Notes: generated by a model from the sequence alone, not told the origin. DNA of 58,679 nucleotides from an uncultured bacterium (GCA_964632485.1 CAZWDO010000003.1:62001-120679); one strand, 5' to 3'; shown: positions 15,686 through 38,537, numbered from the stretch's first letter. Made by a program: numbers and translations.

Positions 15686-15695
15686 GAGAATCCTT

Positions 15696-15713
15696 TTTTG
15701 AAACGTTTCAAAA
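15696..15713. promoter_or_regulatory. LacI-family autoregulatory operator
   Basis: Perfect 18-bp palindrome TTTTGAAACGTTTCAAAA between a minus-strand TTGACA (15737-15742) and the repressor start codon. Confidence 0.85.
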
Positions 15714-15743
15714 TATATAATAATTTTTCTTCGGCTTGTCAAG

Positions 15744-15785
15744 NNNNNNNNNNNNNNNNNNNNNNNNNNNNNNNNNNNNNNNNNN
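15744..15785. other. Assembly gap (run of N)
   Basis: Run of N in the sequence. Confidence 1.
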
Positions 15786-15788
15786 TGT

Positions 15789-16757: not shown

Positions 16758-16818
16758 GGAGGTTAATCTATTAAAAAATAAGTTGTTTGTCAAGATGAAA
16801 AAAATGAATTAATAGCTC

Positions 16819-16846
16819 TTGACTTTTTATTTAAAAATGTTATTAT
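16819..16846 (+). promoter_or_regulatory. Putative sigma-70 promoter of Cys-rich precursor cassette A
   Basis: TTGACT-N16-TATTAT with an extended -10 TGn. Confidence 0.5.
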
Positions 16847-16920
16847 ATATGTAAGATGCAAAATAAGGTTATAATGAGATAAGCTGGTTATAAATTCCGA
16901 ACCGGAGGAGAATCGTTTAA

Positions 16921-17091
16921 ATGAAGTTAGTAAAAATTAATATCGAAAATAGGGACATAGTTTATATTACTGAGCATGTTATATTCCCTTAGAAGGATAA
17001 TGGCCTATTATTATTCAATACCAGAAACAACAACCTTATGGCGATCTGTGAAACTGAAAGAGATTTCAAAGAGGGGGTCATTGATGGTTAG
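16921..17091 (+). pseudogene. Interrupted PqqD/RRE-like (RiPP recognition element) gene remnant
   Basis: Strong RBS GGAGGAG, then ATG 16921. Reads MKLVKINIENRDIVYITEHVIFP*KDNGLLLFNTRNNNLMAICETERDFKEGVIDG*, with TAG at 16990 and 17089. This fits the PqqD pattern v.r..dg.lLfn..t.....lnet...iw...DG. Confidence 0.55.
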
Positions 17092-17157
17092 CGGTATTGA
17101 AGAAAAAACGATGATGAAAAAATAACTTAATTATAAATTAAATTAGGAGAAATTAAG

Positions 17158-17955
17158 ATGAGTGTCAAAAAAAGCTACAATCCACCGGAAATATTTAGTT
17201 TTAATATGCTGTCCAGCCAAACCCTCGGTCAGACATCCTGCGCTGACGGCAGCTCAACCGTCAACTGCCTTGCCGGTTATAATACTGCCGGCGCTTGTAA
17301 TACCGGACCTTCTGCCGTTAATGTCTGCAATTCGGGAAATCAGGCATCCGGGTACTGTTATAATGGGGGAAGCGCCGGATTTGATTGCTTGCCCGGTACG
17401 AATGCCGGATTTCGGTGTAATGCCGGAGGTAATCCTGCTGATAGAACTGGATGCCTGGGAGGCAGCAGTACTAGTTCTCCATGTCTTGGAGGATCTTCCC
17501 CTACGAATACTTATCGTTGCAATGCAGGAGGTAATCCCAGTATTCCAACATGCGCCAATGGAAATTTTCCTGATAGTTATGCCTGCGCGGTAGGGGATGA
17601 CGCTGAACGGGAACCGACTTGCACCGGTGGAAACAATCCGGAAAGTGGCCCGTGCAATTCGGGTAACACAGCAACTGGAGCGCTCGGATGTCAAAACGGA
17701 TCTACTCCTGTGGGACAACAGTGCGCCCATGGTGAGGATCTTTGTACGCCCGGAGGCTCTGACTCCAGCGAACATGAATGCAGTAACGGTAATTTTGCGG
17801 GTCCCCAGGAATGCTCCGCAGGGGGTAATCCGGAATCAAACTCATGCATTAACGGTTTTGGAGAAGAAGGCTGTCAAAACGGCTCCTATCCGGCGGATTA
17901 TAATTGTGATAATGGTGGCAGCGATGATGCTTGTATTTCTGGATCTTCAACATAA
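17158..17955 (+). CDS. Cys/Gly-rich repeat protein A, putative giant RiPP precursor (YxxP leader + 23 CxxG repeats)
   Basis: AGGAG RBS. Leader KKSYNPPEIFSF..LS.Q..GQT; all 23 Cys are followed by Gly at +3; no signal peptide. Paralogue at 31289-32086. Confidence 0.8.
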   Translation: MSVKKSYNPPEIFSFNMLSSQTLGQTSCADGSSTVNCLAGYNTAGACNTGPSAVNVCNSGNQASGYCYNGGSAGFDCLPGTNAGFRCNAGGNPADRTGCLGGSSTSSPCLGGSSPTNTYRCNAGGNPSIPTCANGNFPDSYACAVGDDAEREPTCTGGNNPESGPCNSGNTATGALGCQNGSTPVGQQCAHGEDLCTPGGSDSSEHECSNGNFAGPQECSAGGNPESNSCINGFGEEGCQNGSYPADYNCDNGGSDDACISGSST

Positions 17956-17970
17956 TTTTCTCTAAGTCCG

Positions 17971-18987
17971 ATGCTTAATTTTATCAGGCGCTTTTGCGGC
18001 CGATCGCAAACCAGCTCTGTGGTGTTGGATTTTAACGGTTTTAAAATCAAGCTTTGTCTTATTACTAAGCATCAATTAAAACCAAAATATCATTCCTTTA
18101 TCCATCCCTCTGGCATCAGCAGCGATATAGTCATCGATTGCCGTCAATTATCTCCCGGAACTTCTGAGGCATGCCATGATCTACAATTGAATTCCTATCT
18201 TAAAAATTATTATTTCCACTTCCGCGGTTCCTTCGCTGACCATGGAATAGATCAACAGGATATCAATTTGAAACGGATTGTTGATCCGGACTATTACCCC
18301 CTTTATAATCGCTTCTGCTGTCAGTTCCTCCACGGGTTAAACTGGCCGGATGAGTTGGTCATTCTCCCTCTATCCAATTATTGTATTTTATACTATCCTG
18401 CAGAAAAAAAAGGGATATATTCCTGGCGAAACCAATATCAAACTAATTTTATTATTTCAGAAAATCTTTTTTATTTAACGCTATCTCAATATCTGGCGAA
18501 GCAGAATGGCGTTTTTTTTCACGGCAGCGCCGTTTTGTATCGTAACCAGGCCTATTTGTTTCTGGCTGAATCAGGCGGAGGAAAAAGTACTATATTGAAC
18601 CTATGTAAAGAATGCCAATACTTTTCAGATGATGGTGTGGCTCTGATTAACCAGGACAATCAATTTAAGGTCCTGCCTACGCCTTTTAGTCATTTTTCTC
18701 ATTCCTCCTCTTCGCAAGTCACGACCCCCCATTTAATCCAATCAATATTTATTCTGAAAAAAAATACTTTTAACTCGATTGAACCGGTTAGCAGAATGGA
18801 GGCTTTACCGATGATGCTACATCATCTCCATTATTACTTTTTCATGCCTCCCAGCCTATCGCGTAACGTTTTCGAAACGTGTTATCAAATCATTTCCAAG
18901 GTTCCTGTTCATTACCTGAATTTTCATATCCGCGATGATTCTGTTTTTGAAGATATTTACCGTTTTTTGAATACGGTGAATCCATGA
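17971..18987 (+). CDS. HPr-kinase-related P-loop protein (ScmC/lasso-kinase-like)
   Basis: FFHGSAV...LFLAESGGGKST...FSDDG...PTPF: His motif, Walker A and the DD pair of the HprK C-terminal domain. Confidence 0.8.
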   Translation: MLNFIRRFCGRSQTSSVVLDFNGFKIKLCLITKHQLKPKYHSFIHPSGISSDIVIDCRQLSPGTSEACHDLQLNSYLKNYYFHFRGSFADHGIDQQDINLKRIVDPDYYPLYNRFCCQFLHGLNWPDELVILPLSNYCILYYPAEKKGIYSWRNQYQTNFIISENLFYLTLSQYLAKQNGVFFHGSAVLYRNQAYLFLAESGGGKSTILNLCKECQYFSDDGVALINQDNQFKVLPTPFSHFSHSSSSQVTTPHLIQSIFILKKNTFNSIEPVSRMEALPMMLHHLHYYFFMPPSLSRNVFETCYQIISKVPVHYLNFHIRDDSVFEDIYRFLNTVNP

Positions 18988-19026
18988 ATTCAGTATCGCA
19001 TCAAAATCCATCTGTTTATGCGCATC

Positions 19027-21795
19027 CTATTGATGTTTACATACTGCAATCAGATAATCACTCTCAGTATTATTTTTTTTATTTAGCGGTGTGATGTTAC
19101 GATCAATCTGACCATAAAGCGCATAATCAAACCTTCCTTCCAACAGTTGGACAAACTCTTCCAAATTTAATTCTTTGACATGATGGGGATTGCTGCTTGC
19201 GCCTTTTTTTCGGTTTGGGGTCGAAATGATTGCCGTTCCATTCGGCTTGAGTATGTTTTTAATTATCTGTATAAACCATTCCTGATCATATAAATGCTCA
19301 ATTATTTCAAAAGCGATGACTCCATCAAATTGTTCAGAATAAGGGTACTCAAAAACGTCTCCCTGCTCAAACTTCAATATTGAAGTCTGATAGTTTTCAC
19401 GGGCATGATAGACCGCTTCCTTATTTTTATCCAATCCAAATCCGGAAGTAATGGATTTTTGTAACACATATAATCCATAGCCTGATCCAGAGCCAAGATC
19501 GATGAGATTTCCTTTCAGAAATGGTTTAGCAAAAAGATAACGGGCGACATGCTCCTTAATTACTTGACCAAAACAGAATCGATCAAGCTTGGGCGCGATG
19601 CGTTCCGGATAGAACCTGTTGCGATATATCTTCAACAGCCAGTTATCGCTGGTTTCAAAATCAATCACTTCTTTTTTATAAAAATATTTTAGTTTCCAAC
19701 CGTTTTGGTTGATTATATCCGTATCCCAGAACAGATCAAATATTTCCTGCAAGATGACCGGGGATAATTCCGGATTGATAATAGGAAAAAAGTTTCCATT
19801 CAATTCTTCATAATCACAGCTCCGAAAAAAATTTCGGTAATTATTATACTCTTCAGTCTGAGGAATTGGAGTGAAGATCATCAATGTTGCAGTCCCACCC
19901 AGCTTATGAGCAAAAATAATGGAATCGATAATCTCCTCCACAGTCTGTTCAGGAAGTCCGATGATAATATAGAATAAATATCTTAATCGATACTTTTTCA
20001 ATATATTCACCTGTTCGAAAATTTTGGTCATTTTGGCCGGCTTATGAAAGCGGTGATAATAAACATGGTATGAAGCGCTCTCCAAAGGTATAAAAAAACC
20101 TTCCAACTGATTGATCTTGAAAAAATGCTGAAAAAAATCATCGGTAAGCTTATCAATCTGAAACCCGTAAGAGCCATCGATGCTAACCGGATACTGATTA
20201 TCAATTAAATAATGAAGGAATTTCATCAGATTGTTTTTAGCCAGCATCAAATTGCTATCCCAAACCATGAATTCCCTGATCCCTAACTGATAATAGTATT
20301 GAAACTCATTTATAATCTTTTCATAAGAATAGAAGATCAACTGGTTTTCAACTTTTGGCACCGCGCAGTAACTGCACTGATTCGGACAGCCTTTGATAAA
20401 CCTCATAATTGCCCTATCAGGCAGATAGTCTAACAATTGCATCAGCGGATAATAATTATGAGCGTCCTCAAACTCTCCACAATGCGCATGATCGCATTCG
20501 GGGAAGCTGAATCCATCGGGAATCAGGATTGCCGCCGGCCCGCCGATCGTTACCCGGCACTGAGGAAACATCATTTTAATGATCCGGGCAATTTTTTTAA
20601 TATTGTAAATATGATATGTAAATGTAGCCGTTATCATCACTTCATCAGGAATATCATTCCTTGATTTCAAGTCATTCAGCATTTTTCTGAATCCACTGTA
20701 AGGCAATCCGTAATGATAAATCGGTTTTTCTAAATTTTCCAGTTTTTTCTGTCCTAATTTCACAGCGTACCCATAATAGTATGGCATAAAATCATAAAAA
20801 TATACATCATGTCCCTGAATCAATAAATAATGTGCAATTCTAAGCAATCCAGTCGGAATATTTCTTCCAATGGAAGTGGACATATACTTCCAATACTCAG
20901 GCGTATCTCTTACGGGAGGATTAATTAGCAGGTATTTTCGGGGTTCCTTTTTCTGTTTGGATTCAAAGAAAAAATATCCGCTGTTCTTGATCCGCAAATC
21001 GGGAAGATTCAGTTTATGATAGTTCAATTCATCGAAAATTCCTTGCCTGATAGAGGGATGATGACGCCATTTTTCTTTCAGGCGAACTAAATTTTTAATA
21101 CACTGAGAAACCCTTCTCTCGCTTTGAAACGATACCCCATTGATATGAGTGATGTATATATTTTTGCTGATTCCAGTTTCAAATCCGAATTCTTTTGCTC
21201 GCCAGCAGAAATCGACATCCTCAAAGTACCCATACCCAAAATCCGGATCAAATCCACCTATCAAATCCGTCACCTGTTTTCTGATCATCATACAGAAACC
21301 AAATATAAAATCACATTTTTGGATCGCCTGAAGCGTCGGTATCCCGACAATGAATTTGTTGAATGCATTTACATCTTTCTGAGTGATTTTTTCTCCAAGG
21401 TTTACATATCCCGAATAATTAAAAAAAGGGATATTCGTCAATGGACCCAAAACTCCCAGTTTGTCGTCGCTTCTTATGGCATTTAGCATTAATTCCAGCC
21501 ATTGGGGCGCTAATGCAATATCATTATTAAGTATGACTTTATAATCTGCATCGCTAAATTGTAACCCGCGGTTCACGCTGTATATAAACCCGCGATTGAT
21601 GCGATTGGTAATTAATTTAACATGGAGAGTATCCCGCATATCGTTGAATCCGTCAGGAAATGGTACATTACTGCAGTCATTGATCATAATAACCCGATAA
21701 TTCGGGTATTGGGTATATTCTCTTATCTTTTTCAACAAACGCAGTGTCAAAGTCAAATGATTAAAAAAAGGAATAATTATATCTACACTTTCCAT
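19027..21795 (-). CDS. Three-enzyme fusion: GT2 glycosyltransferase + B12-binding radical SAM + class I SAM methyltransferase
   Basis: N-terminus: DIIIPFFN, INDCS, LNND, GFCMMI, YFEDVDFCWRA. Middle: LLINPP..PTGLLRIA..IGGPAA, KGCPNQCSYC, YIIIGLP, FTPIPQT. C-terminus: EHVARY, DLGSGSGYG, FEIIEHL, STPN, NPHH..E. Confidence 0.88.
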   Translation of the reverse strand: MESVDIIIPFFNHLTLTLRLLKKIREYTQYPNYRVIMINDCSNVPFPDGFNDMRDTLHVKLITNRINRGFIYSVNRGLQFSDADYKVILNNDIALAPQWLELMLNAIRSDDKLGVLGPLTNIPFFNYSGYVNLGEKITQKDVNAFNKFIVGIPTLQAIQKCDFIFGFCMMIRKQVTDLIGGFDPDFGYGYFEDVDFCWRAKEFGFETGISKNIYITHINGVSFQSERRVSQCIKNLVRLKEKWRHHPSIRQGIFDELNYHKLNLPDLRIKNSGYFFFESKQKKEPRKYLLINPPVRDTPEYWKYMSTSIGRNIPTGLLRIAHYLLIQGHDVYFYDFMPYYYGYAVKLGQKKLENLEKPIYHYGLPYSGFRKMLNDLKSRNDIPDEVMITATFTYHIYNIKKIARIIKMMFPQCRVTIGGPAAILIPDGFSFPECDHAHCGEFEDAHNYYPLMQLLDYLPDRAIMRFIKGCPNQCSYCAVPKVENQLIFYSYEKIINEFQYYYQLGIREFMVWDSNLMLAKNNLMKFLHYLIDNQYPVSIDGSYGFQIDKLTDDFFQHFFKINQLEGFFIPLESASYHVYYHRFHKPAKMTKIFEQVNILKKYRLRYLFYIIIGLPEQTVEEIIDSIIFAHKLGGTATLMIFTPIPQTEEYNNYRNFFRSCDYEELNGNFFPIINPELSPVILQEIFDLFWDTDIINQNGWKLKYFYKKEVIDFETSDNWLLKIYRNRFYPERIAPKLDRFCFGQVIKEHVARYLFAKPFLKGNLIDLGSGSGYGLYVLQKSITSGFGLDKNKEAVYHARENYQTSILKFEQGDVFEYPYSEQFDGVIAFEIIEHLYDQEWFIQIIKNILKPNGTAIISTPNRKKGASSNPHHVKELNLEEFVQLLEGRFDYALYGQIDRNITPLNKKNNTESDYLIAVCKHQ

Positions 21796-21820
21796 TTAAT
21801 CCTCTTTGGAGTGAATTGGT

Positions 21821-22705
21821 TTATGATCGACTGTTATTCGCCGGGGGCGCTTCTTTTATTACACTCCCGTACGATGGGGAGTTGCAACTGTTAAACCATT
21901 GTTTCAGAAGGTAATTCAATAAAAATGAATAAGGATTGTTCTTTATTTGACTGATCAGTCCGATCACTTTTGACCGGAAAGAATTCTCAACCTTATGCCA
22001 GATGGGAGTATCGCTCAGTAGGTGAAGATGGAAATTAATGATTGGCTTTTTCTCAAGATATAATCCATCATCATGAGAATCGATCCGATTGATCAGGGGA
22101 TATTTCCAGGCTCCGATATTGCAAGTATCAGGGAATACAGTATATTGATACTGGCCGGTATTGAGCACAATCTCCAGTGGTTTTTGATCTACAAAATATT
22201 TGCGTTCGTTTATGATTTTCCCCCAGTCCTCCACAAACTTCATATTCCTGACTAACACCATACCGCTATTATACTTGCCGACATAATCCAATGTTTTAAC
22301 CTTAAGAATGGAGAAATGGCCGGTTTGATCCGAAACCATGACATCATAGTGGCTTGAAAGAAACTCATTAAAAATGGATTGGACCGAATATAAAAACAAC
22401 AGATCGCAGTCAAGTAAAAAAGCATATCCGTTCTGACGGATTGATTCCATGCAAACTGTTATTTTATGCGATACAATCCGGAGGAAGTTATCCTGTTTTT
22501 CGAGTTTAAGGTGATGACCATCCGAGCAATCGATAATTGGGATAGTCCTGATATTTGGACAGAAAGAGAGTCTTTCAGCAGAAAAAAAATCCGTCGCCAC
22601 AATCCATTCGCAGGGCTGGAATAATTCGAGGCTGGTTTTCATCAACATGAACTCATTAACCGTGCGTTGCGTACATACACACGTAAAAACGATGGCTTTA
22701 TGCAT
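21821..22705 (-). CDS. GT-A fold nucleotide-diphospho-sugar transferase (GT77/GT8-like)
   Basis: K...C...I, LLDCDLLF (DxD), YNSGMV, FVDQKPL, CNIGAW and FHLH. Confidence 0.75.
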   Translation of the reverse strand: MHKAIVFTCVCTQRTVNEFMLMKTSLELFQPCEWIVATDFFSAERLSFCPNIRTIPIIDCSDGHHLKLEKQDNFLRIVSHKITVCMESIRQNGYAFLLDCDLLFLYSVQSIFNEFLSSHYDVMVSDQTGHFSILKVKTLDYVGKYNSGMVLVRNMKFVEDWGKIINERKYFVDQKPLEIVLNTGQYQYTVFPDTCNIGAWKYPLINRIDSHDDGLYLEKKPIINFHLHLLSDTPIWHKVENSFRSKVIGLISQIKNNPYSFLLNYLLKQWFNSCNSPSYGSVIKEAPPANNSRS

Positions 22706-23831
22706 CTGAATCCCCAGAAGATTGAACGTGATTGAATAGTACTGAAGTCAATGGATTGAGGAAACAAAGCGCCTGACATTCGAGTTGTTCCAGCTTTTCC
22801 AGTAAAGGAGGAAATACATTGCGATAATCATAACAGCGGGAAACCAAGATGTTTTTTTCACCCATTTCCCGGGCTGGTTCCTGATGATCCATGAACCAAA
22901 CCAGTGATGATACCAGTTCTGCCATATCCACCTCATCGTTCCGAACAGAAACCAAATACCCGTTATCGCCATCCCTGATCAGTTCATTCAAAGCCTGCCA
23001 ATCGGTAGTGATCACAGGTAATCCGGACGCCATGGCTTCGATCACAACACGTCCGAATGTCTCGCCCTCAAAACTTGAGAGATGAACCAGAATATCAGAC
23101 TGTTTAAAAATAGCAAATTTCAATTGCGGTTGATCGATCAAATCGCCCCACCAGCGGACATTTGTCGATACCCCCCGCATCGAAATCAATCGGATAATCG
23201 ACAGATAATATTCTAATTTCTCTGGCAGATTGGAAATAATATGAAGCTGCCATTTTTTATTTTTAAACGCTTGCTGAATAGCCGGAATAATCCGGTGCAG
23301 ATGCCGGTAGTTCTCCAGACGGCTGCAAAAAACAATCTGGAAAACATGTTGATTGCCCCCGGACCAGGGGATAATTTGACGTATCATTTCAGAATCAATC
23401 GGAATCGGGAAATTAATGGATTGAAGTCCGGGAGCAAGCTCAGCCATACGGTCAGCCGTATAATGGCTGAAAGCCAGTAATAAATCTTTATTACAGATCA
23501 ATCCGGCGATTGAAATCCATCGGTGCTTCCAAGGTTCTATAATAAATGGAAAGAGAATGAACCCTATATCCAGATTGGATGCATAACGATAGGAAAAGAA
23601 ATCAAAAAGGATGAACACATCATTAAAAAAAATAAACCGAATTTCCTTTTTGACGACATCGTCAAACCAAATTTTAAGATTGGTTTTTCGTGGACTATAC
23701 TTCAGAGGGATCATTTCTGCATACATGGAAAAATATTGTAACAGTTCGGTAATCGTAATTTTATGGCTGACATTTGAAAAACGCTGGATATCAAAATAAG
23801 CAATTTTCAGTTTGGGTGAAGTCTTAATCAT
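22698..23831 (-). CDS. Glycosyltransferase family 4 (GT-B)
   Basis: ETFGRVVIEAMASGLPVITT...ELIRDGDNGYLV (EX7E motif). Confidence 0.9.
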   Translation of the reverse strand: MIKTSPKLKIAYFDIQRFSNVSHKITITELLQYFSMYAEMIPLKYSPRKTNLKIWFDDVVKKEIRFIFFNDVFILFDFFSYRYASNLDIGFILFPFIIEPWKHRWISIAGLICNKDLLLAFSHYTADRMAELAPGLQSINFPIPIDSEMIRQIIPWSGGNQHVFQIVFCSRLENYRHLHRIIPAIQQAFKNKKWQLHIISNLPEKLEYYLSIIRLISMRGVSTNVRWWGDLIDQPQLKFAIFKQSDILVHLSSFEGETFGRVVIEAMASGLPVITTDWQALNELIRDGDNGYLVSVRNDEVDMAELVSSLVWFMDHQEPAREMGEKNILVSRCYDYRNVFPPLLEKLEQLECQALCFLNPLTSVLFNHVQSSGDSDA

Positions 23832-25006
23832 AACAAACCAACCCGGTGAATAAACGACAGAAAATTCTTTTCAAGTATCCCGCGCCATTTTAACCAGTTC
23901 TGACGGGAGATTTGGCATGATCTCTCATAATACTCCGGTTCATGCAGTAATCGTCGTAACCGAAAAGAATAGGCCTGAATAACCTGTTCGGGGGCGCAGT
24001 TTTGAATATCAACCAGATTCTGATCATCCGGAATAATTTCCGGAATACCGCCAATTCTGTTCGCCAGAATCGGAATTGAATATGACATTGCTTCAAAGAT
24101 GACCCGGGGACATGCATCTTTGACAATGGAAGGAACCAATAAAATCCGGGTTCGAGAATAAATACGATAGATCCTGGGTGTTGAATTGATAAAAACCAGA
24201 TTCGGGTTGAGGGGGCGATTCAGTTTGTTGAAGAATGTTTTTTTTCCTGAAACAGCCACAAATATTTTTTCGCGGAACAAGCAGGACAATAGAAAAAAAA
24301 GATACCCTCCTTTTTGAGGCAAAAAATTGATCAATGTGATCCATTCTTTGGCGCTTGGTAAACAATCAGGAGTTTTGGTATCCACGATTGGATAAAGAAC
24401 AAAAGAATTGATTCCATACGCCTGTTTTAATTCTGTTTGAAGAAAAACGCTGCTGACAGAAACAGGCACTCTTGCGAGCGCCGCTATCAATTCCATTTTA
24501 TATGGAAATGAAAACTGAAACTCAATCGGTTCCATCGATCGGATAAAATGAAAAACCGGATAATCTCTAGCGGCTTCCATGGAAAACAGATCATATTGAG
24601 TTGTAAAAACCAGTCTTGGGACCCATTGATCAATATACCGGCGCATGAAATCCACTAACTCACTCTTGATCTCGGGCGCCTGCTGGGAGTATAGCATACC
24701 AATCGGAAAGGGAGCGCGGATGAACATAAACCACAACCGATTGCGTTGAAATGTCATTATATCTTCCTGAATCAGAAATTCCGAGACATCCGGATCAGCG
24801 GTAATCTGTCTCTCTATTTTATTCCAATTACAATTTTTATCCCAAAAATGCGCAACGGCGCATCGGTCATAATATTGCTGAATTGACTCTAATAGCGAAA
24901 TCAAAGAGAGAGTTCCACCATCGTTAAAATGAATATTAAAGTAACCTGTAGATAAACGAATAGCAGAATGTTTGAAAAGAGGTGAAATAGCGCAGCTTTT
25001 CTTCAA
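23828..25006 (-). CDS. Glycosyltransferase family 4 (GT-B)
   Basis: KGG, TRILLVPSIVKDACPRVIFEAMSYSIPILANRIGGIPE. TTG start after GGAG. Confidence 0.85.
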   Translation of the reverse strand: MKKSCAISPLFKHSAIRLSTGYFNIHFNDGGTLSLISLLESIQQYYDRCAVAHFWDKNCNWNKIERQITADPDVSEFLIQEDIMTFQRNRLWFMFIRAPFPIGMLYSQQAPEIKSELVDFMRRYIDQWVPRLVFTTQYDLFSMEAARDYPVFHFIRSMEPIEFQFSFPYKMELIAALARVPVSVSSVFLQTELKQAYGINSFVLYPIVDTKTPDCLPSAKEWITLINFLPQKGGYLFFLLSCLFREKIFVAVSGKKTFFNKLNRPLNPNLVFINSTPRIYRIYSRTRILLVPSIVKDACPRVIFEAMSYSIPILANRIGGIPEIIPDDQNLVDIQNCAPEQVIQAYSFRLRRLLHEPEYYERSCQISRQNWLKWRGILEKNFLSFIHRVGLL

Positions 25007-25009
25007 GTT

Positions 25010-25480
25010 TCAACTCCCGAATAAGCGCTGGAATTTCTGAAGGAATTTTCCCTTTAAACCACTTTTAAAATTAATTTCTAACCTATTGTTATTGCAATAT
25101 ACTGCTATTATAAACAGGGATAGTGCAGAAAAAAAGGCGCTGACTGTAATTATAAGGAATGTCTGCAAATCGCCCACCTGAAAAAGCCATGAAGAAGATT
25201 TATCATGCGCTGAATTTTCATGTCGTGATAGCAGTAGAGAGTCTTCTTCAAGAAGTAAATACAACATACTATTACCCGGCTCCAATCTTCTAAGACCCCA
25301 GCCATTGTCATTATTTCTATTATGATTGACAATCCTGCTTTGTCCCCCACCTCTGCCACTCCTCCAGATTTCATTAAAAGAAGGTTTACTACAATTATCC
25401 CACACATCTCTATACTCAGCTCGTCCAGTTAATATTGAAAAACTAAGAATACTTATAACTAACAAAAAATTCTTAAACAC
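25010..25480 (-). CDS. Hypothetical exported/membrane protein heading the glycosyltransferase operon
   Basis: GGAGG RBS 7 nt before GTG; signal-peptide-like N-terminus and a C-terminal TM helix. Confidence 0.65.
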   Translation of the reverse strand: MFKNFLLVISILSFSILTGRAEYRDVWDNCSKPSFNEIWRSGRGGGQSRIVNHNRNNDNGWGLRRLEPGNSMLYLLLEEDSLLLSRHENSAHDKSSSWLFQVGDLQTFLIITVSAFFSALSLFIIAVYCNNNRLEINFKSGLKGKFLQKFQRLFGS

Positions 25481-26268
25481 ACATTAACCTCCAATCTACG
25501 CGAAAAAACCACAGATACCATTTTATTATTCACAAGATACTGGTTAATAAAAATAAAGATAGGAAAATTTAATCGCCCTACCGTGAATATAATAGGAATA
25601 ATTTTTATAAATGTCAAGAGGGAAATAAGTATTTAAGACTAGATAGTTTTTAAGATTCCACCGACATTTTTTGTCGAATTTTCCAAATGCGCTCTGAAAT
25701 CAGAAAAATTTGACATGCCAAATTCCATTTTTATATGTTATTTTTATTTCCATGAGGCATCAAGTTGTCTATCACGCTTTAATCATTTGAACGAAGAGTT
25801 CATAAAATTAACTCTTTGTTCAGGCAATTCCATTGAAATTATCTTTGAAGTAAAAGTGAAGCTTGGATCGAATAGGAATAAAATTGAGAAAAACACCCTG
25901 TCGATATGGAATGAGACGGGTTTGAAAGCGATTGACTTCGCGTTATCTTGATACGAATGACGAACCGCGCTCGATATCCGGATTGTGAGCAGGTCCTTAT
26001 CGCGCTTAAGGCGTTGGAGAATTGGCGATACGTCGCGGCAAGTTCTTAGCGTCTCTCATGCTGCCGAATATGTGGTAAAATCGTGGACTGGGTCTTACGT
26101 CAAGAGGATAAATGTCGGCAATGGCTGGATAGCAGCGTTTGAGATTCAGTTCGTCGCTAAATAAATTATGGGTATTGAATTGTCTGGTTTATAAAATACG
26201 CCAATGGAATTAAACCAGAGAAATTAGCGAAGGTTTGATTAGTGAATTCGATATTTGTTTTATTAGCT

Positions 26269-26297
26269 TGACTTTTGAAATTAAATTGATTATAATT
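26269..26297 (+). promoter_or_regulatory. Putative sigma-70 promoter
   Basis: TTGACT-N17-TATAAT upstream of the hybrid kinase. Confidence 0.6.
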
Positions 26298-26451
26298 CAC
26301 TTGACAGATACTCATTTAGTCAATAGTTTAAAATATTGAACTAAATGGAACACAAAAAGTTCTGGAGTATTTGTCAACTTTATATTTTTTTACTTGCAGA
26401 TTTCATGTACTATTATTATATAGAATGAACATTGATTTAAAGGAAATGAAG

Positions 26452-28290
26452 ATGGACATGGTAACGAAACGGTTCCGGGAATTGATGGACCGTTTAGGCA
26501 GTGAAGAACAAACGATCATCTTTCAGCAATTTGAAATTCAAATGCAGGAATACTTGCATGATAATTTGGAAAATATTCGACTGGCAGATCAGTTTTCCAC
26601 CACACTGGCGAATCATAGATATCAAACGTTGGTCGATTTAATCCCCGATATCGTGTATCGTATTGATCCTGAAGGTATTTTTACATTCATATCTGATTCA
26701 ATAGTTTCATTGGGTTATACCCCTGAAGAATTGCTGGGTGAGCATTTTTCCACTATTATTCATCCGGAGGATTACCCTCTTATATCCAGGAAACATGTTC
26801 TTGGGCTATTAAAGGGCAAAGCCACGGGTCCCGAGAAAGCGCCTAAGCTTTTTGATGAGCGCCGGACGGGGCCGCGAATGACTAAATATCTGGAAGTTCG
26901 GCTCATGCCTAAAGGGAGTGGGGAAATCGCTAATATGCAGGAATATATGTTTGGAACGGTCAATTGCTTCGGTGAAGTCGTTTCGACAGGGATATATGAT
27001 CAACAGTCGGGGCAGGAGAAAAAGGTTCTGATAGGGACTGTCGGTGTTGTTCGCGACATTACGGCGCGCAAGAAAGCCGAAGAAGAAAAGAAACGATTGG
27101 AGCAACAACTGTATCAGGCCCAAAAGCTGGAAGCGATCGGTCGTTTAACTGGAGGCATTGCCCATGATTTTAATAATATGCTGGGTGGTATTATGGGTTT
27201 TGCGGATTTATTGAGGCGCCGGATTAGTGAGAAAGACGAAGTCTTAAGGCATTATAGCCAGGTTATATATGATACCAGCCAAAAAGCGGCGGGGTTAACT
27301 TCCAGTTTATTAGCGTTTGTCCGAAAGGAAAAAAGTGAAATACGGGTGATTGATTTTCATGACGCCATTCTGCGAATATTTAAACTTATTGAACATACTT
27401 TGGACAAACGTATCAAAATTAATCTGCAATTGCTGGCGGAATGCGCCAATTTGGAAGGGGATTCAGCCCAACTTCAAAATGTGCTGGTTAATTTGGCGAT
27501 TAATGCCCAGGATGCCATGCCCAACGGCGGTGCAATTATAGTGAAAACTGAAAATATTTCCATTACGTCTTCAGATAATTCCGTACCTCCTCCCGGAGAA
27601 TATTTTCACTTGCAATTCATTGATGAAGGGCAGGGAATTCCGGACGAGTTGAAGGAAAAAATTTTTGAACCTTTTTTTACTACCAAAGATCCGGGACGCG
27701 GTACCGGATTGGGGCTTTCTATTATCCGATCAACCATTGAAAACCACAAGGGATTTATTACCCTCAATAGCGAGTTTAGTAAGGGAACTACTTTCAACCT
27801 TTATTTCCCGCTATCCGGGGCTGTTGTATGTTCGACCGGAGAAGAACTTGAGACAATCCCCCAGGGCAAAGGAACGATTCTTTTTATTGACGATGAAGCT
27901 GTTATCCGTCAGGTTGTTAATGAAATGTTGAAAGATCTCGGTTTTCAGATTGTAATCAAAGAAAACGCCCGGGAAGGCATCGATTTTTTTTCTCGCCATT
28001 ATCAGAATATTGATCTGGTGATCATTGATTTGATCATGCCTGAGATGAATGGTTATGACTGTTATCTGGCATTAAAGGAGATTGATCCAAACATGCATGT
28101 CATTATTGCTTCGGGATATGCGGTTAATGTCGAAACAAAAAAAATGATGCGGGAAAAATGCTTGGAATTTTTACAAAAACCGTTTGAGATAAAACGCTTG
28201 GCCAAGTCGATTCAAAAAGTTCTAAAAAAAAATTGTGTGCCAACCTCGGCTCATAGTGAAATGCCTCCGATGAAACCCTCAGAAAAATAA
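26452..28290 (+). CDS. PAS hybrid sensor histidine kinase/response regulator (CckA-like)
   Basis: PAS domain, QAQKLEAIGRLTGGIAHDFNN, NLAINAQDAM, FFTTK..GRGTGLGL and receiver IDLIMP. Start could be 26425, 26446, 26452 or 26458. Confidence 0.92.
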   Translation: MDMVTKRFRELMDRLGSEEQTIIFQQFEIQMQEYLHDNLENIRLADQFSTTLANHRYQTLVDLIPDIVYRIDPEGIFTFISDSIVSLGYTPEELLGEHFSTIIHPEDYPLISRKHVLGLLKGKATGPEKAPKLFDERRTGPRMTKYLEVRLMPKGSGEIANMQEYMFGTVNCFGEVVSTGIYDQQSGQEKKVLIGTVGVVRDITARKKAEEEKKRLEQQLYQAQKLEAIGRLTGGIAHDFNNMLGGIMGFADLLRRRISEKDEVLRHYSQVIYDTSQKAAGLTSSLLAFVRKEKSEIRVIDFHDAILRIFKLIEHTLDKRIKINLQLLAECANLEGDSAQLQNVLVNLAINAQDAMPNGGAIIVKTENISITSSDNSVPPPGEYFHLQFIDEGQGIPDELKEKIFEPFFTTKDPGRGTGLGLSIIRSTIENHKGFITLNSEFSKGTTFNLYFPLSGAVVCSTGEELETIPQGKGTILFIDDEAVIRQVVNEMLKDLGFQIVIKENAREGIDFFSRHYQNIDLVIIDLIMPEMNGYDCYLALKEIDPNMHVIIASGYAVNVETKKMMREKCLEFLQKPFEIKRLAKSIQKVLKKNCVPTSAHSEMPPMKPSEK

Positions 28291-28456
28291 TCTGAGTTCT
28301 TGTTAAATCTACCCATACGTATTCAGTATTTTGCGCATTAATAATTGAGGAAAACTACGGTTAGGAATAGTATGGGCTGATGGATTGCAGAGTTGCCGGG
28401 TGGATCGAAATTTTATGATAGCTCAGTAAATTTAGTCCGATTAGAAAGAGGATTTT

Positions 28457-30250
28457 ATGAATTTTGGCGATAAAATCGAATTCAGTATTATATGTGCGCT
28501 CATCAATTTATTGATGGCTATCGGCATACCTTCCCATGCGCAGTTTTATCTAAATGAAGTGGAGGTGTGTTCAACCCGAATACTGGAAAACCGCGATCTG
28601 GTTAAAAGTGAAGTCAATGCCACTCCAGCTATGGGCATTTGGACCTCGCATGCGCAGATATTCCAGGCGTTGAGTCTTGCCGGATTGGATTGGACGGCGC
28701 GCGGGAGTGGCCAGGCAGTGAATGATTTTTCAATTAATGGCGCTAACTTTCAGCAAAATCTAGTGCTATTGGATGGAATGCGGCTGGCCAATCCTCAGAC
28801 CGCGCATTTTAATCTTGATTTGCCGGACGCTGTTTTTAATACTAATTTCTGCCAGATTGGAATAATTCCGGGAAATGCTTCGAGTATTTACGGATCCGAC
28901 GCTTTTGGCGGGATACTGCAATTCACCATTCCGGACATTTTGCGCGAACGCCAGTCATTACAAGCGAGCTATGGTTCTCATCAGACCTTCCGGGGAGATT
29001 TTCATATCCAAAAAATTACTGGATATCAGCAATGGCATGGCGCGCTTTCGTTTCAACGGTCAGCAGGATATATGGCCAACAGTGACTACGAAAACGTGGG
29101 TTTCTTTTTAAAGCATCAAACACTCATACAACCGGGATTGAGCGCCCGGAACTATCTGTTTTTTTCAGACAAACGATTCGGCGCTAATAATTTTTATGCG
29201 TTATATCCCTCCCGGGAAGCGACTCGTTCTTTTTTTGCAGCCAACCAAATGGAACTGCGTTTAAGAAAAAATTGGTGGGCAAACAGCAAGATATACGTCA
29301 ACCGCCATACAGACCATTTTGTTTTAATTCGAGACGACCCGTCTGTGATGGACAATCGACACACAACCACAAGTTTAAATGGAGAGTTTCAGTTATCGAA
29401 CGATCGATGGAGCGCGGGAATATTCTCTTCTGTTGAGGAAATAGAGAGTAATCACCTTGGCGATCACCGCCGATGGAATCTGGCTTTTTTCAGCGAGTAT
29501 GGCCGGATTATCAACCAGCGATACTTTTTACATTTCGGATTGCGGGAAGATATTTACCCTAATGAGCAAATCATGAGTCCCCAGCTTGGTTTGGCTTGTT
29601 TTCCAATTCCCCGGCTACGGCTGTTTGTTCATGCTGGCCGTTCGTTTCGTAATGCTTCGTTTACCGAACTCTATTATCATTCGAAATCCAATATAGGCAA
29701 TCCTGATTTGAAATCAGAATCCGCCTGGTCATTTGAGCAGGGTATTGATTGGAAGTCTCCGAGTTTGGAAATTCGTTTCTATTCGTTTCTGCGGCGGGAG
29801 GACCAGTTAATCTCCTGGGCGCAAAGTCCGGAAAACGATACCCAATGGCAGGCCAGGAATATTGAGCGGTTGATAGTTTGGGGTCAGCAGTTCAGTCTGG
29901 ATCTGCAAGTATTCACTTCAGCCCAGTTAGGATGCGGTTTTTGGTGGTATCATTACCGTACAGATCACATCACCGATCTAATCGAAAAATATTTTCGGCC
30001 TCAATATCAATTAGCTTTCAACTTGAATCAGAAACTCACCCCCTTTTGGGGGTACTCCGTGGCATTTTATTATAAAAAAAATTATTCAATGTCAGAATAT
30101 TCGCTGCTCAATTCAGGAATGATTTTTGAAATTGGGGAATGGTGGGTCCAATTGGCTGTCGATAACATTTTGAATACGAACTATGAAAGTATCAGGTACT
30201 TGCCGGCTCCTTCCCGTGAAATGTTGCTAAAAGTGGGTATTGAGCTATAG
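28457..30250 (+). CDS. TonB-dependent outer membrane receptor (BtuB-like size and motifs)
   Basis: Signal peptide, plug motifs SINGANFQQNLVLLDG and PGNASSIYGSDAFGG, GNPDLKSE, and C-terminal VDNILNTNY...PSR. Confidence 0.85.
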   Translation: MNFGDKIEFSIICALINLLMAIGIPSHAQFYLNEVEVCSTRILENRDLVKSEVNATPAMGIWTSHAQIFQALSLAGLDWTARGSGQAVNDFSINGANFQQNLVLLDGMRLANPQTAHFNLDLPDAVFNTNFCQIGIIPGNASSIYGSDAFGGILQFTIPDILRERQSLQASYGSHQTFRGDFHIQKITGYQQWHGALSFQRSAGYMANSDYENVGFFLKHQTLIQPGLSARNYLFFSDKRFGANNFYALYPSREATRSFFAANQMELRLRKNWWANSKIYVNRHTDHFVLIRDDPSVMDNRHTTTSLNGEFQLSNDRWSAGIFSSVEEIESNHLGDHRRWNLAFFSEYGRIINQRYFLHFGLREDIYPNEQIMSPQLGLACFPIPRLRLFVHAGRSFRNASFTELYYHSKSNIGNPDLKSESAWSFEQGIDWKSPSLEIRFYSFLRREDQLISWAQSPENDTQWQARNIERLIVWGQQFSLDLQVFTSAQLGCGFWWYHYRTDHITDLIEKYFRPQYQLAFNLNQKLTPFWGYSVAFYYKKNYSMSEYSLLNSGMIFEIGEWWVQLAVDNILNTNYESIRYLPAPSREMLLKVGIEL

Positions 30251-30327
30251 GCTTATTGCTATGGCAATAGAATTTTTATGCGTTCATTATCGATGGGAAA
30301 CAGCAATTCAAGGATAATGAGAAGGAG

Positions 30328-31278
30328 TTAACGACCACAATAGGAATCAATCTTATCGAAAATAGTAGAATCGGTTTGGGAAAAATAGAGGTTATAAAAA
30401 TTGGTTTCACGGATTAAGTCGAGCAAGGTGTCCAATAATTGCATGGTTAAAGAGGCCGGAAAATAGCGTGAAAAATGATGGTACTCTTTGGCGATTTTTG
30501 GGAGGAGTTGCAAACCAGGTGAAAATTTTTCTATTTTAAGTTCTTTGCTCTGATGAATAAAGAAGAAATGTTTCAGCGGCAAGTCGGGAAGCAAATAATG
30601 GCGGGCTTGATAGCCATACTGATAAAATGGAGATGGTGAAACATAAAAACCATCTTCTTTTTTGATGATAGCGATTGTATCGTCGCTATAGCACTGTTTG
30701 TGTGGATTCAATCGGGTTAGTGTGCTCTTGCCCTGGTTTGAATGTCCAAGGAACGCAACTATTTCTCCGTAATGTTCCAGTCCGGATCCATGGAGCAGTA
30801 ATCCCTTATTACCGATTAAGACGACACTCCATAATAGGATGAACAGATTGATATCCAATACTATTTCTTGTGGGGAATTGGGCTTACAAAACAGAAACGC
30901 GGTCAAATGGTCCGGGAAAATTAGTATGGTATAAGTTACATTTCCATACGAAAATCCGTCAGCGCTATCGAGTTGAAATTGGGGGTGGCTTTTTTGAATA
31001 AAAGAGTTTATGAGCTCTTTTTGGATTTGCAAATTTAACTGTTCCTCCCCGGAATAAAAGGATGGGCTTGAGGAGTTTCTGTTTTCATCAGAGTGCAAAG
31101 TGTCGGCGCCGTTCAAGTCAGCTGTTGGGTACGGGTGGCAGTATAAATTGAACGGGCTACGAGTTTCATCGACTGATGTTATGATATAATCTTTAATTTT
31201 TGCGGGTATTACAATTTTTTTCGCGGTTTCCGCAATGATTTTTAATGGGCGAAAAGGGAGTTGGACATAGATGCGCAT
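30328..31278 (-). CDS. HPr-kinase-related P-loop protein (paralogue of 17971-18987)
   Basis: LLHGSGL...AFLGHSNQGKST...YSDDT...PSPF. Start moved to ATG 31278, 10 nt after the precursor B stop. Confidence 0.8.
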   Translation of the reverse strand: MRIYVQLPFRPLKIIAETAKKIVIPAKIKDYIITSVDETRSPFNLYCHPYPTADLNGADTLHSDENRNSSSPSFYSGEEQLNLQIQKELINSFIQKSHPQFQLDSADGFSYGNVTYTILIFPDHLTAFLFCKPNSPQEIVLDINLFILLWSVVLIGNKGLLLHGSGLEHYGEIVAFLGHSNQGKSTLTRLNPHKQCYSDDTIAIIKKEDGFYVSPSPFYQYGYQARHYLLPDLPLKHFFFIHQSKELKIEKFSPGLQLLPKIAKEYHHFSRYFPASLTMQLLDTLLDLIRETNFYNLYFSQTDSTIFDKIDSYCGR

Positions 31279-31288
31279 TGAAAACGAT

Positions 31289-32086
31289 TTAAAGAGCGTA
31301 GGCGCCGGACGCGCAGTTTTCAATTGGCGCTTGACCCTGCCGGCACCCGGAAAACGAGGGAAAAGCTCCAGTGCCGCAGCCGGAATCGGCATTGCTACCT
31401 AATTCGCAATTGACATTGAGCGCTTGGTTTCCTTCCGCGCAAGCCGACTGGATTTCAAAAATGTCCGGGGATTGCATGAGAAAACCGGCGGTTGTGCCAG
31501 TAGCGCATGTATCATTCGGGACCGTGCCATTATTGCAAGTTCCGGCGCGTGCGCCAATACCGGAATTGCATTGATCCCCACGCGCTAAATTTCCATTATT
31601 GCAATCCGTATTAACATTGCCTCTGGCGGAATTTCCATTGTTGCAGGCCCGATCGGCAGATCCCCCCGATAAACAATCATTATTGTCAGCGACTGACCCA
31701 TTAATACAATCCGCTGCAGGTAGAGAGGTATTGTTGCCTGTAGCGCAACTGGTTGCTGTATAGGATCCGGTCGGATTACAAGCTGCATTGGCGTATCCAC
31801 CTGTACCGCATTCATTTGCTGCATAACTGCCGTATACATGACAGGCATTGCCCGCTTCATTGCCAAAAGTTTCGCAGCGGTTGCCGGCGATGTTGCCTGC
31901 TTCACAACGATTATCGGCAATTCCCCCATTTGGATTGCAACTTCCTGTTCCTGTAGGAATACTGCCATTTGGGCAATCAGCCGTGGCGACATTCCCGGTA
32001 TTGCAATCTCCGGTAGTCTGTCCGTTGACCTGATAACTTAAATAATCAAAACTAAAAATTTCCGGTGAAATATAGTTTCGTTTCAT
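31289..32086 (-). CDS. Cys/Gly-rich repeat protein B, putative giant RiPP precursor (YxxP leader + 21 Cxx(x)G repeats)
   Basis: AGGGGG RBS before ATG 32086. Leader KRNYISPEIFSF..LS.Q..GQT, then 17 CxxG and 4 CxxxG units; no signal peptide. Confidence 0.8.
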   Translation of the reverse strand: MKRNYISPEIFSFDYLSYQVNGQTTGDCNTGNVATADCPNGSIPTGTGSCNPNGGIADNRCEAGNIAGNRCETFGNEAGNACHVYGSYAANECGTGGYANAACNPTGSYTATSCATGNNTSLPAADCINGSVADNNDCLSGGSADRACNNGNSARGNVNTDCNNGNLARGDQCNSGIGARAGTCNNGTVPNDTCATGTTAGFLMQSPDIFEIQSACAEGNQALNVNCELGSNADSGCGTGAFPSFSGCRQGQAPIENCASGAYAL

Positions 32087-32317
32087 TCTCAATGCCCCCT
32101 AAGCGTTAGGTGATTATAGGCTTTTTATAGTATCGCCGCGACTATACTTGAAAATGCGCGGGTGTCTGCATCAAGTGATCAACTCAGAGCTTTTTTTAAT
32201 CTCTGCCATGGTTTATGTTCATTATCCATCGTGTTTCAGCATCTCATAAAAAAACGATGTAGCCTGTGGCGAAACCGTGACTACAGATAGCTGCCCGGCC
32301 TTCGCCTTTGTTTTAAT

Positions 32318-32345
32318 ATAATAATCAAATTTAATTATAAGTCAA
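32318..32345 (-). promoter_or_regulatory. Putative sigma-70 promoter of cassette B
   Basis: Minus-strand TTGACT-N16-TATTAT, the same arrangement as upstream of cassette A. Confidence 0.45.
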
Positions 32346-32517
32346 GTAATATTTTAATGTTTATATATATCATGAAAAATACAAAATCGTTCAGATTTGA
32401 ACACTGATCAAATTGACCCGTCAAATTTAGCAAAAAAATGGCAGCGACACGATGCGATGTTGTTTTTTAATCTATTATATGATAAGATGTTAAAGTCATA
32501 AGTGATTATTTTAATAT

Positions 32518-32535
32518 TTGGCACGAAAAATGCTA
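32518..32535 (+). promoter_or_regulatory. Sigma-54 (-24/-12) promoter
   Basis: TTGGCACGAAAAATGCTA (GG-N10-GC), ~37 nt before the start of the 1662-aa gene. Confidence 0.75.
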
Positions 32536-32571
32536 ATTATATCATAACATTAAAAACGTAAGGAGGCGGTT

Positions 32572-38316: not shown

Positions 38317-38537
38317 CAAAAAACCAATCATGAACTTATCTTATAATATTCTTAGTGTTTTTTGTGCTTTGATACCGAACGGATAAGTCAGCCAATCAGG
38401 TTTTCTAAAAAAGGAGCGACGATCGATTGAATATGAATATTGGTATGTTTTGCCATCATCCCCAGCTAATGCATCTTGTTATGTTAATTAGTTTAAAATT
38501 AAGTTATATATTATTACAAGCAATAAGTTCAGCAGGC

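Follow-up and report, generated by a model that had tools for sequence, protein, structure and literature searches.

Protein-sized Cys-repeat precursors as probable substrates of a divergent SynChlorMet-type radical SAM maturation system in an uncultured bacterium

The stretch of DNA analysed in this work (hereafter the window) is a segment of 58,679 nucleotides (nt) from an uncultured bacterium (GCA_964632485.1, CAZWDO010000003.1:62001-120679), and its subject is a pair of cassettes, labelled W1 and W2, which lie within the window on opposite strands and each of which consists of a gene for a long cysteine-repeat protein, here called a precursor, followed by a gene for a kinase-like P-loop protein. 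The two precursors are probably protein-sized substrates of a divergent relative of the SynChlorMet system, in which radical S-adenosylmethionine (radical SAM) enzymes with a SPASM domain are encoded with a PqqD-family chaperone. The features of the two cassettes, in window coordinates and with protein lengths in amino acids (aa), are the following.

16819..16846, + strand: promoter-like motif (TTGACT-N16-TATTAT) that precedes the PqqD relic and W1, with 10 of 12 consensus matches and a TG before the second hexamer
16921..17091, + strand: truncated PqqD-family pseudogene relic with one in-frame TAG, between the promoter-like motif and W1
17158..17955, + strand: precursor W1, 265 aa, with the leader MSVKKSYNPPEIFSFNMLSSQTLGQTS (27 residues) followed by repeats of 9-12 residues, C-x-x-G-x-x-A/P, that contain 23 Cys
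17971..18987, + strand: ScmC/HprK-like P-loop protein W1, 338 aa, with the Walker A sequence GGGKST and an SDD motif
30328..31278, - strand: ScmC/HprK-like P-loop protein W2, 316 aa (start codon ATG, 31278), with the Walker A sequence NQGKST and an SDD motif
31289..32086, - strand: precursor W2, 265 aa, with the leader MKRNYISPEIFSFDYLSYQVNGQTTGD and 21 Cys repeats
32318..32345, - strand: second copy of the promoter-like motif, TTGACT-N16-TATTAT, about 230 nt before the start of precursor W2

An earlier description of this locus, made from the DNA alone (the sequence-only reading), had reported two genes of identical length with a common leader and CxxG-repeat cores, and this description is accurate: each of the two open reading frames (ORFs) spans 798 nt and encodes 265 aa, with a TTG at 32092, upstream of the W2 start, as an alternative start that would give 267 aa; 14 of 23 residues in the leader stretch are identical when the translations are compared; the cores contain 23 (W1) and 21 (W2) Cys; and BLASTP aligns the two proteins with 34% identity across 206 columns (58.9 bits, E 7e-15). 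The top inverted repeat of the region is the leader-coding DNA itself (47 nt, 77% complementary, 17159-17205 with 32045-32091), and the sequence AGGAG is found 8 nt 5' of the W1 ATG. The promoter-like motifs that the same reading attached to the cassettes are indeed present, starting at 16819 (+) and 32345 (-), but they carry little weight alone, because the region has no excess of promoter-like sites (56 were counted, against 48.3 +/- 7.2 expected from shuffles). The stretch of about 230 nt between the motif and the W2 start (32087-32317, - strand) contains no relic of a PqqD or radical SAM ORF, and a search of Rfam with window positions 15000-34000, the untranslated stretch upstream of W2 included, returned nothing at E <= 0.1. 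Coverage of the region comes from a single sequencing run, the probable source, and runs with a small share gave short exact pieces. A masked run produces X residues in ORFs around 15740-15790.

The P-loop gene of each cassette starts 15 nt (W1, at 17971) or 10 nt (W2, at 31278) after the precursor stop, and the two encoded proteins are paralogs, as had been proposed (27% identity across 198 columns, E 2e-19). Their assignment to the HprK type is sustained by structure prediction: the AlphaFold2 model of the W1 protein, with a predicted score in the local distance difference test (pLDDT) of 88.7 and a predicted template modelling score (pTM) of 0.87, is matched by Foldseek to ATP-dependent phosphoenolpyruvate carboxykinase (PEPCK) along its whole length (E 3.1e-7, query TM-score, TMq, 0.50) and to HPr kinase/phosphorylase (HprK/P) over its C-terminal half (E 1.8e-5 to 9e-5, target TM-score, TMt, 0.49-0.54), so that the model and the Foldseek matches together place the protein in the HprK/PEPCK fold. 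A sequence profile compared with the sequences of the PDB gives weak matches to the same two families (PEPCK E 1.3e-4, HprK/P E 4.4e-4), and the NCBIfam matches of the window proteins, to ScmC and to HprK-related kinase A, are also weak; for ScmC (TIGR04249) they are 16.3 bits (W1) and 22.9 bits (W2, E 4.5e-5), and 37.5 bits for the homolog in the sister genus introduced below, against a cut-off of 125. The family of HPr(Ser) kinase/phosphorylase proper (TIGR00679) is not among the matches of the window P-loop proteins and appears weakly in 3 of 40 relatives.

The six paralogs found in this genome all keep one Asp and the GK[ST] of Walker A (general form G-x-x-G-x-G-K-[ST]), and an alignment of 60 relatives shows no variation at the GK[ST], an Asp and a His; the Asp of the downstream acidic motif is one which we take to have a functional role in kinases of the HprK/PEPCK fold. 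Judged from its sequence, the P-loop partner is likely to be an active ATP-using enzyme. The N-terminal 140 residues are highly divergent among the six paralogs. A profile of these paralogs, searched among 1.84 billion entries, found 12,321 representatives at E <= 0.001, 2,625 at E <= 1e-10 and 22 at E <= 1e-30. The top nine matches are the six from this genome, one from a genome of the same order and two singletons (P0007 and P0008) on short contigs (5.8 and 3.0 kb) of other samples. None of the 40 relatives that come next passes a cut-off: weak ScmC matches occur in 32 of them (best E 5.3e-13), and matches to HprK-related kinase A and to kinase B in 15 and 14.

The collection that was searched contains three genomes of the phylum, namely the present one, one from a sister genus and one from the same order, and all three contain members of the precursor family, ten in total: six here, one in the sister genus and three in the same-order genome. 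The six in this genome (4.45 Mb in 66 contigs) form dispersed precursor/kinase pairs, of which those outside the window are the following.

Contig C11: kinase-like gene at 53150-54151 and precursor at 54253-55239
Contig C8: precursors at 1057-1701, 3951-5084 and 143108-144001, each adjoined by a kinase-like gene

The window cassettes are therefore two of six such pairs, and the proposal that two inward-facing cassettes constitute a unit is not supported: no second cassette exists at the corresponding place in the sister genus, so the inward-facing arrangement has no special meaning. A further fragment of 55 residues on contig C2 (158210-158374, + strand), which resembles the C-terminal end of the kinase-like proteins (E 5.4e-7) and is interrupted by two TAA codons, lies 14 kb from the maturase operon described below and may be what is left of a seventh cassette.

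Across the family, the combination of a conserved leader with a variable Cys-repeat core, which the sequence-only reading had drawn from two genes, extends to all ten members. The leader M-K-K-x-Y-x-x-P-E-I-F-x-F-x-x-L-S-x-Q-x-x-G-Q-T is kept in 10 of 10, the invariant positions of the alignment being K4, Y7, P10, F15, L18 and T26 together with C/G columns, and the first Cys is always residue 27, 28 or 29. The proteins are 198-377 aa long and contain 16-31 tandem units of the form C-x-x-G-x-x-A/P-x-x-x. Of the 205 intervals between successive Cys, 138 measure 10 or 11 residues and 180 measure 9-13; 95% of the 215 Cys have Gly at +3, and 75% have Ala or Pro at +6. Gly, Asn, Ser and Ala are abundant in the cores, which contain 0.6-5.3% Lys+Arg and 10-17% hydrophobic residues, and no hydrophobic stretch of the signal-peptide kind is visible in the precursor sequences. 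W1 and its sister-genus ortholog share 61% identity. W1 and W2 match no NCBIfam family at E <= 1; AlphaFold2 gives no confident fold for the precursor (pLDDT 40.3, from an alignment of only 10 rows), a predicted lack of structure that is as expected for a substrate-like chain; and comparison with the ESM Atlas gives leads only (best feature score 0.81, with every structure TM-score at or below 0.30).

The enzymes that may act on these precursors become apparent from the other genomes and from contig C2 of this one. The genes concerned are the following.

Sister genus, locus L029, one strand, 397-717: PqqD, 106 aa
Sister genus, locus L029, same strand, 710-1813: ScmE-like radical SAM/SPASM enzyme, 367 aa
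Sister genus, locus L029, same strand, 1855-2961: ScmF-like radical SAM/SPASM enzyme, 368 aa
Sister genus, locus L029, same strand, downstream, 3026-3736: precursor
Sister genus, locus L029, same strand, downstream, 3752-4777: kinase-like protein
This genome, contig C2, 174548-174964, - strand: PqqD, 138 aa (Pfam PqqD, 43.7 bits, over the cut-off of 23.4)
This genome, contig C2, 174236-174535, - strand: PqqD, 99 aa (lasso-peptide PqqD chaperone, 38.2 bits against a cut-off of 70, the only family at E <= 1e-5)
This genome, contig C2, 173122-174228, - strand: ScmE-like radical SAM/SPASM enzyme (ScmE, 219.4 bits)
This genome, contig C2, 171972-173120, - strand: ScmF-like radical SAM/SPASM enzyme (ScmF, 317.3 bits)

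In the sister genus the precursor and its kinase-like partner thus form a single cassette with a PqqD gene and two SPASM genes, whose products score best on the NCBIfam models ScmE (225.5 bits) and ScmF (287.3 bits); the kinase-like protein scores best on ScmC (37.5 bits), and the PqqD protein matches PqqD-type chaperones, with 22.8 bits on ScmD (TIGR04248) against a cut-off of 100. Each of the three genomes has one maturase operon, and the same-order genome has the four genes in an order identical to that on C2 (PqqD, PqqD, ScmE-like, ScmF-like), unlinked to its precursors. The pseudogene relic upstream of W1 connects the window with this arrangement: it is 47% identical to residues 8-54 of the sister-genus PqqD (E 1.4e-9; tblastn E 7e-11), and its position implies that the sister-genus linkage is the ancestral state of this locus, since lost here. 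No such relic lies beside the other five cassettes. Within the window, Pfam analysis of 9 + 1 + 10 proteins, which covers part of the small ORFs, found no SPASM enzyme and no peptidase, and a search of the genome with the ScmF-like protein had no match inside the window; the sequence-only reading had seen neither kind of gene there and had suggested maturases acting in trans, for which the operon on C2 now provides candidates. It had also pointed to SynChlorMet for comparison, a choice that the sister-genus cassette vindicates.

The substrate of these operons can be approached by elimination. The ScmA precursor model (TIGR04252, 49 positions, cut-off 35) reaches at best 12.6 bits in this genome and finds nothing at E <= 1 in the two relatives; three stretches that score below threshold on it belong to one giant precursor. 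The sequence read around the three maturase operons is devoid of separate small ORFs rich in Cys, and the giant proteins are the only leader-bearing substrate candidates that were found for them. The leader itself is of a kind familiar from lasso peptides, whose leaders carry a YxxPxI...T motif, and the assignment of the 99-aa PqqD to the lasso chaperone family fits the lasso-like leader at the level of sequence. In a structure-prediction test of the complex between leader and PqqD, the score was 0.54 against 0.01 for the best control, with at least 94% of contacts agreeing between runs and a partner pLDDT of at least 54. The mark applied in this test is reached by 58 of 80 solved complexes and by 2 of 110 mismatched pairs, and the range at or below 0.60 holds only 7 of the 80 solved complexes along with both of the mismatched pairs that pass; moreover, since complexes of leaders with the RiPP recognition element (RRE; RiPP, ribosomally synthesized peptide with post-translational modifications) have been solved, a pass may reflect likeness to them rather than binding. 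The model accordingly lends weak support to binding of the precursor leader by PqqD. The longer PqqD (C2 174548-174964, - strand, and L163/L165 15223-15621, - strand, in the same-order genome) begins, as judged by eye, with R-R-x-F-L followed by a hydrophobic run, an extension which hints that one RRE protein may be exported or anchored in the membrane.

Taken together, these findings make it probable that W1 and W2 are substrates of the SynChlorMet-type system, and we infer, for the binding of the leader by PqqD, the cysteines as the modified residues, the thioether chemistry, the activity and target of the kinase-like protein and the fate and function of the product, a scheme of the following kind. 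A discrete PqqD-family chaperone, encoded with the two ScmE/ScmF-like enzymes (C2 171972-174964), would bind the leader and hand the repeat region to the two SPASM enzymes, which would modify the Cys unit by unit, most likely by thioether cross-links if the analogy with the ranthipeptide and sactipeptide enzymes and with CrpC (see below) holds. The P-loop protein of HprK/PEPCK fold would use ATP on its own precursor or in handling it, either by phosphorylation or by a substrate-specific presentation. The outcome would be a multiply stapled protein and not a small peptide.

Several observations weigh against this reading. The maturase operon is unlinked to the precursors in two of the three genomes, where it lies on a different contig, so that the link rests on one locus, the single cassette of the sister genus, and one relic. 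Heme/NirJ-type SPASM families likewise give the ScmE/F-like enzymes 150-170 bits, so that the chemistry of these enzymes cannot be read from sequence. All five curated SynChlorMet cut-offs are missed (ScmE 219-225 of 400 bits, ScmF 287-317 of 400, ScmC 16-37 of 125, ScmD 22.8 of 100, ScmA at most 12.6 of 35), which makes the system a divergent relative and not a member. One precursor of the same-order genome, on C57, has no adjacent kinase. The distances among precursors and among kinases are correlated in a Mantel test (r 0.70), but the correlation comes only via one ortholog pair, falling to 0.095 without it (3517 of 10000 permutations were as high), and co-evolution of the pairs is not supported. 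The cassette at C8 143108-144001 carries three further small radical SAM/SPASM genes (268-303 aa) of a different type, and further enzymes may thus take part. The cassettes that were read came with no protease, exporter or signal peptide, and the product may consequently stay a protein, as in the Crp case discussed below. Finally, one 168-nt contig from an RNA library matches window 17639-17771, within W1, exactly; this is at most a hint of expression, because such a contig can come from DNA.

The surroundings of the C8 cassette just mentioned deserve a brief description. One of the small SPASM genes that follow it, scanned on NCBIfam, has tungsten-cofactor maturase and spiro-SPASM models as its best matches, and the cassette is preceded by a fusion of a family 1 glycosyltransferase (GT1) with DUF218 and by a C39-like peptidase with a tail of the type IX secretion system (T9SS); the coordinates of the surrounding genes are 139421-142087 (-), 144185-146044 (-) and 146235-148175 (-).

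The alternative that survives best, which nevertheless appears unlikely, is that the Cys-repeat proteins are substrates or clients of the adjacent P-loop protein only, by way of phosphorylation or ATP-dependent handling, and that the radical SAM operon of the sister genus serves some other substrate. Its attraction is that the unit which has been multiplied is the pair of precursor and kinase, the kinase adjoining 9 of 10 precursors, and that the maturase operon is unlinked in two of three genomes. To our knowledge, however, HprK-type kinases that act on their own have no known use for a leader of this kind; the relic of PqqD ahead of W1 indicates an ancestral linkage at the locus; the complex test, with its weak support (0.54 vs 0.01), speaks for PqqD as a partner of the leader; and no alternative small Cys-rich substrate lies in the sequence read near the three operons.

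The remaining alternatives concern the genes between the two cassettes and the nature of the repeats themselves. The block that follows the W1 cassette, on the opposite strand, is made up as follows.

19027..21795, - strand: fusion of a family 2 glycosyltransferase (GT2), a B12-binding radical SAM domain and a SAM methyltransferase, 922 aa (Pfam)
21821..25480, - strand: four genes, for a 294-aa protein without family, two GT1-type glycosyltransferases and a 156-aa protein without family

The sequence-only reading had offered these enclosed enzymes as possible maturases, and it might be argued that the glycosyltransferases and the GT2-B12 fusion are the main ones, which would glycosylate or methylate repeats rich in Cys and in N-G-S/T. 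The block is syntenic with that at the W1 ortholog of the sister genus, where a convergent GT2-B12 fusion (a 71% identical ortholog in the same position), a protein without assignment, two GT1 enzymes and the 156-aa protein follow in the gene order of the window, and a GT1-DUF218 gene adjoins one C8 cassette too. Synteny inside one family is weak functional evidence, however, and the same-order genome possesses three precursors, two kinases and the maturase operon and has no ortholog of the fusion (the best match is 29% identical over part of the length), while four of the six cassettes of this genome have no glycosyltransferase among the neighbours read. The glycosyltransferase and B12 radical SAM block is thus not conserved at the order level, its genes are not conserved maturases, and a main role for them is very unlikely; from its distribution, the fusion with its neighbours may be a family-level accessory. 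The best family of the B12 radical SAM domain of the fusion is the PhpK-type P-methyltransferase (66 bits, far below the cut-off), its third part is a class I SAM methyltransferase, and the three-part architecture is unusual. Beyond the block lie a hybrid sensor kinase (26371-28290, read by eye) and a TonB-dependent receptor (28457-30250), which show no link to the precursor system.

Even less probable is the alternative that the repeats are unmodified Cys-rich structural or metal-binding proteins, the N-terminal tag of which is a signal for targeting or assembly. The abundance of Cys, Gly, Asn and Ser, the small number of charged or hydrophobic residues, and the presence of the TonB-dependent receptor and the sensor kinase between the cassettes would agree with such a role, and a role related to metals is suspected for CrpA (PMC13692751). 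On the other side stand the lack of any predicted fold at the pLDDT given above, the lack of a signal peptide visible in the tag, the linkage with PqqD and two SPASM genes, and the constancy of the tag, 27 residues before the first Cys in 10 of 10. The least probable alternative is that the proteins are multi-core precursors which are cut into many small modified decapeptides: they have 16-31 tandem units of nearly constant length, but the units differ in sequence, no conserved cleavage motif flanks them, Lys+Arg make up only 0.6-5.3% of the core, and the cassettes read contain no protease, the sole nearby peptidase being the T9SS-tailed C39-like one, two genes away from one cassette.

Comparison with known systems supports the reading as a SynChlorMet-type system and also marks its limits. 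With the SynChlorMet cassette, for which the NCBIfam/TIGRFAMs models are ScmA TIGR04252, ScmC TIGR04249, ScmD TIGR04248, ScmE TIGR04250 and ScmF TIGR04251, the present system shares a discrete PqqD, two radical SAM/SPASM enzymes with ScmE and ScmF as best families, an HprK-like P-loop protein with ScmC as best family and a Cys-bearing precursor, and in the sister genus all of these parts stand in one cassette. It differs in its precursors, which have 198-377 aa and 16-31 Cys repeats where the ScmA model has 49 positions; in the multiplication of the precursor and ScmC-like pairs (6, 1 and 3 per genome) around a single, mostly unlinked maturase operon; and in the presence of two PqqD genes, one of them with the N-terminal RRxFL. 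Bona fide ScmA proteins for a comparison of leaders were found in 0 of 14 genomes of another phylum, and the controls were blank too. The SynChlorMet cassette is catalogued in protein families and has no described chemistry: the word SynChlorMet occurs in none of the 8.4 million papers and preprints searched, searches for ScmC, ScmE, ScmF and the TIGR accessions gave only unrelated acronyms among the matches listed, and no literature was found that joins HPr kinase, PqqD, radical SAM and a precursor peptide.

Lasso-peptide clusters of the paeninodin type likewise combine an HprK-like kinase with a PqqD-type RRE, and the kinase acts on the leader-bearing precursor; their leaders follow the pattern Y-x-x-P-x-[L/I], with a Thr placed two residues ahead of the core, and the C-terminal Ser is the site of phosphorylation. 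The HprK-fold partner, the Y-x-x-P-x-[L/I] leader with its Thr, and the 99-aa PqqD, with the lasso PqqD chaperone as its best family, are the points of likeness, whereas the cores here are 170-350 residues of Cys repeats and a C-terminal Ser is found in just one of ten precursors, with Ser-Thr at the end of another. Among the cassette neighbours scanned there is no lasso cyclase and no leader protease, a statement that covers these neighbours and not the genome as a whole, which was not searched for them. Ranthipeptide and sactipeptide systems (PapB/freyrasin; QhpD/QhpC) resemble the present one in having SPASM enzymes which make several Cys thioethers in repeated short motifs, but the substrates described for them are under 60 aa with at most six links. 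The ScmE-like enzyme scores 70.2 bits on the PapB family (NF047865, cut-off 340), and the StsB and AlbA models are far below their cut-offs too.

Among characterised systems, the nearest is that of Methanococcus voltae, in which CrpA, a protein of 28.8 kDa with a leader-like N-terminus and ten copies of a Cys motif of 17 residues, acquires ranthionine links through CrpC, a radical SAM/SPASM enzyme (PMC13692751, 2026). Both systems have a protein-sized substrate with tandem Cys and a radical SAM/SPASM enzyme, and two Crp substrates have a common N-terminus with a different core (PMC13692751); a large Cys-repeat protein with a leader-like N-terminus next to a radical SAM/SPASM gene is also found in the sister genus, while in the window only the relic remains. 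The differences are that CrpC is a TIGR04463 protein with a fused RRE, whereas the RRE here is a separate protein; that the Crp cluster has neither a kinase-like partner nor a separate PqqD; and that the motif is C-x-x-Q/D in Crp and C-x-x-G-x-x-A/P here (PMC13692751). On TIGR04463 (cut-off 525) the best score in this genome is 41.8 bits, on C12, and the ScmF-like and ScmE-like enzymes reach 35.2 and 31.2 bits. The list of CrpA homologues in PMC13692751 might include relatives of these precursors.

Since the principle of SPASM cross-linking on a protein-sized Cys-repeat substrate is already published (PMC13692751), and the cassette is a divergent relative of a catalogued one, the description of the locus as a candidate new system was too strong. 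The RiPP-like reading as a whole is nevertheless largely borne out by the sister-genus cassette, the PqqD relic and the operon in trans, the enclosed glycosyltransferase and B12 enzymes being the part that falls away. What is notable in the system is the size and regularity of the substrate, its multiplication with private kinases, and its separation from a single maturase operon. A more far-reaching proposal, which is offered tentatively and is rather doubtful, is a hub-and-spoke arrangement of protein stapling, in which one maturase operon would serve up to six dispersed substrates, each gated or presented by a fast-diverging HprK-fold kinase that would act as a substrate-specific adaptor and not as a tailoring enzyme, and in which tens of thioether rings would be placed on intracellular or envelope proteins; if true, the rings would be far more numerous than in any described RiPP-like product.

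SynChlorMet-type cassettes with PqqD, two SPASM enzymes and an HprK-like protein are widespread in anaerobes and have no described chemistry, while the candidate substrate here is unambiguous, long and regular, with about 20 near-identical sites per molecule, so that a mass shift per Cys should be easy to detect. The system would thereby provide a natural test bed for the way in which one RRE and two SPASM enzymes process many consecutive sites, and the coexistence of six pairs with one maturase set offers a direct route to the role of ScmC-type kinases and to substrate specificity. Along with the archaeal CrpA/CrpC, it would, if true, extend RiPP-style cross-linking from peptides to proteins in bacteria.

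The precursor family was found nowhere outside its lineage, which is a weak statement, because the leader patterns were narrow and the protein searches were blind to their own queries: word-indexed searches, with a capped number of candidates, returned nothing for the whole precursor, for the 10-row alignment or, among shorter proteins, for residues 1-60, the query sequences themselves included. Back-translated leader patterns on genome contigs gave one real occurrence among the best 80 of 89 stretches (L087, the same precursor as that of the sister genus), and on metagenome contigs the strict pattern gave 0 stretches and a looser one gave 5, of which one is real (L146, the same protein as the precursor on C28 of the same-order genome). 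Literature on Delongbacteria contains, by title and abstract and among the matches listed, nothing on this system. Distant HprK-like loci with radical SAM/SPASM and PqqD genes occur in three other phyla (L032-L034), two of the three with an S24/S26-like peptidase, and no Cys-repeat protein is present among the ORFs listed there; at L033 5346-8064 and L034 7500-8942, HprK-like genes are accompanied by PqqD and an S24/S26-like peptidase, and L033 also has a radical SAM/SPASM gene and lies by polysaccharide-export genes.

Elsewhere in the window, three genes on the + strand encode very large secreted proteins: one at 32572-37560 has, as judged by eye, many repeated units of about 90 residues and a T9SS-like C-terminal tail, a second at 38427-40463 has a CHU_C T9SS tail domain, and the third occupies 47054-52345.

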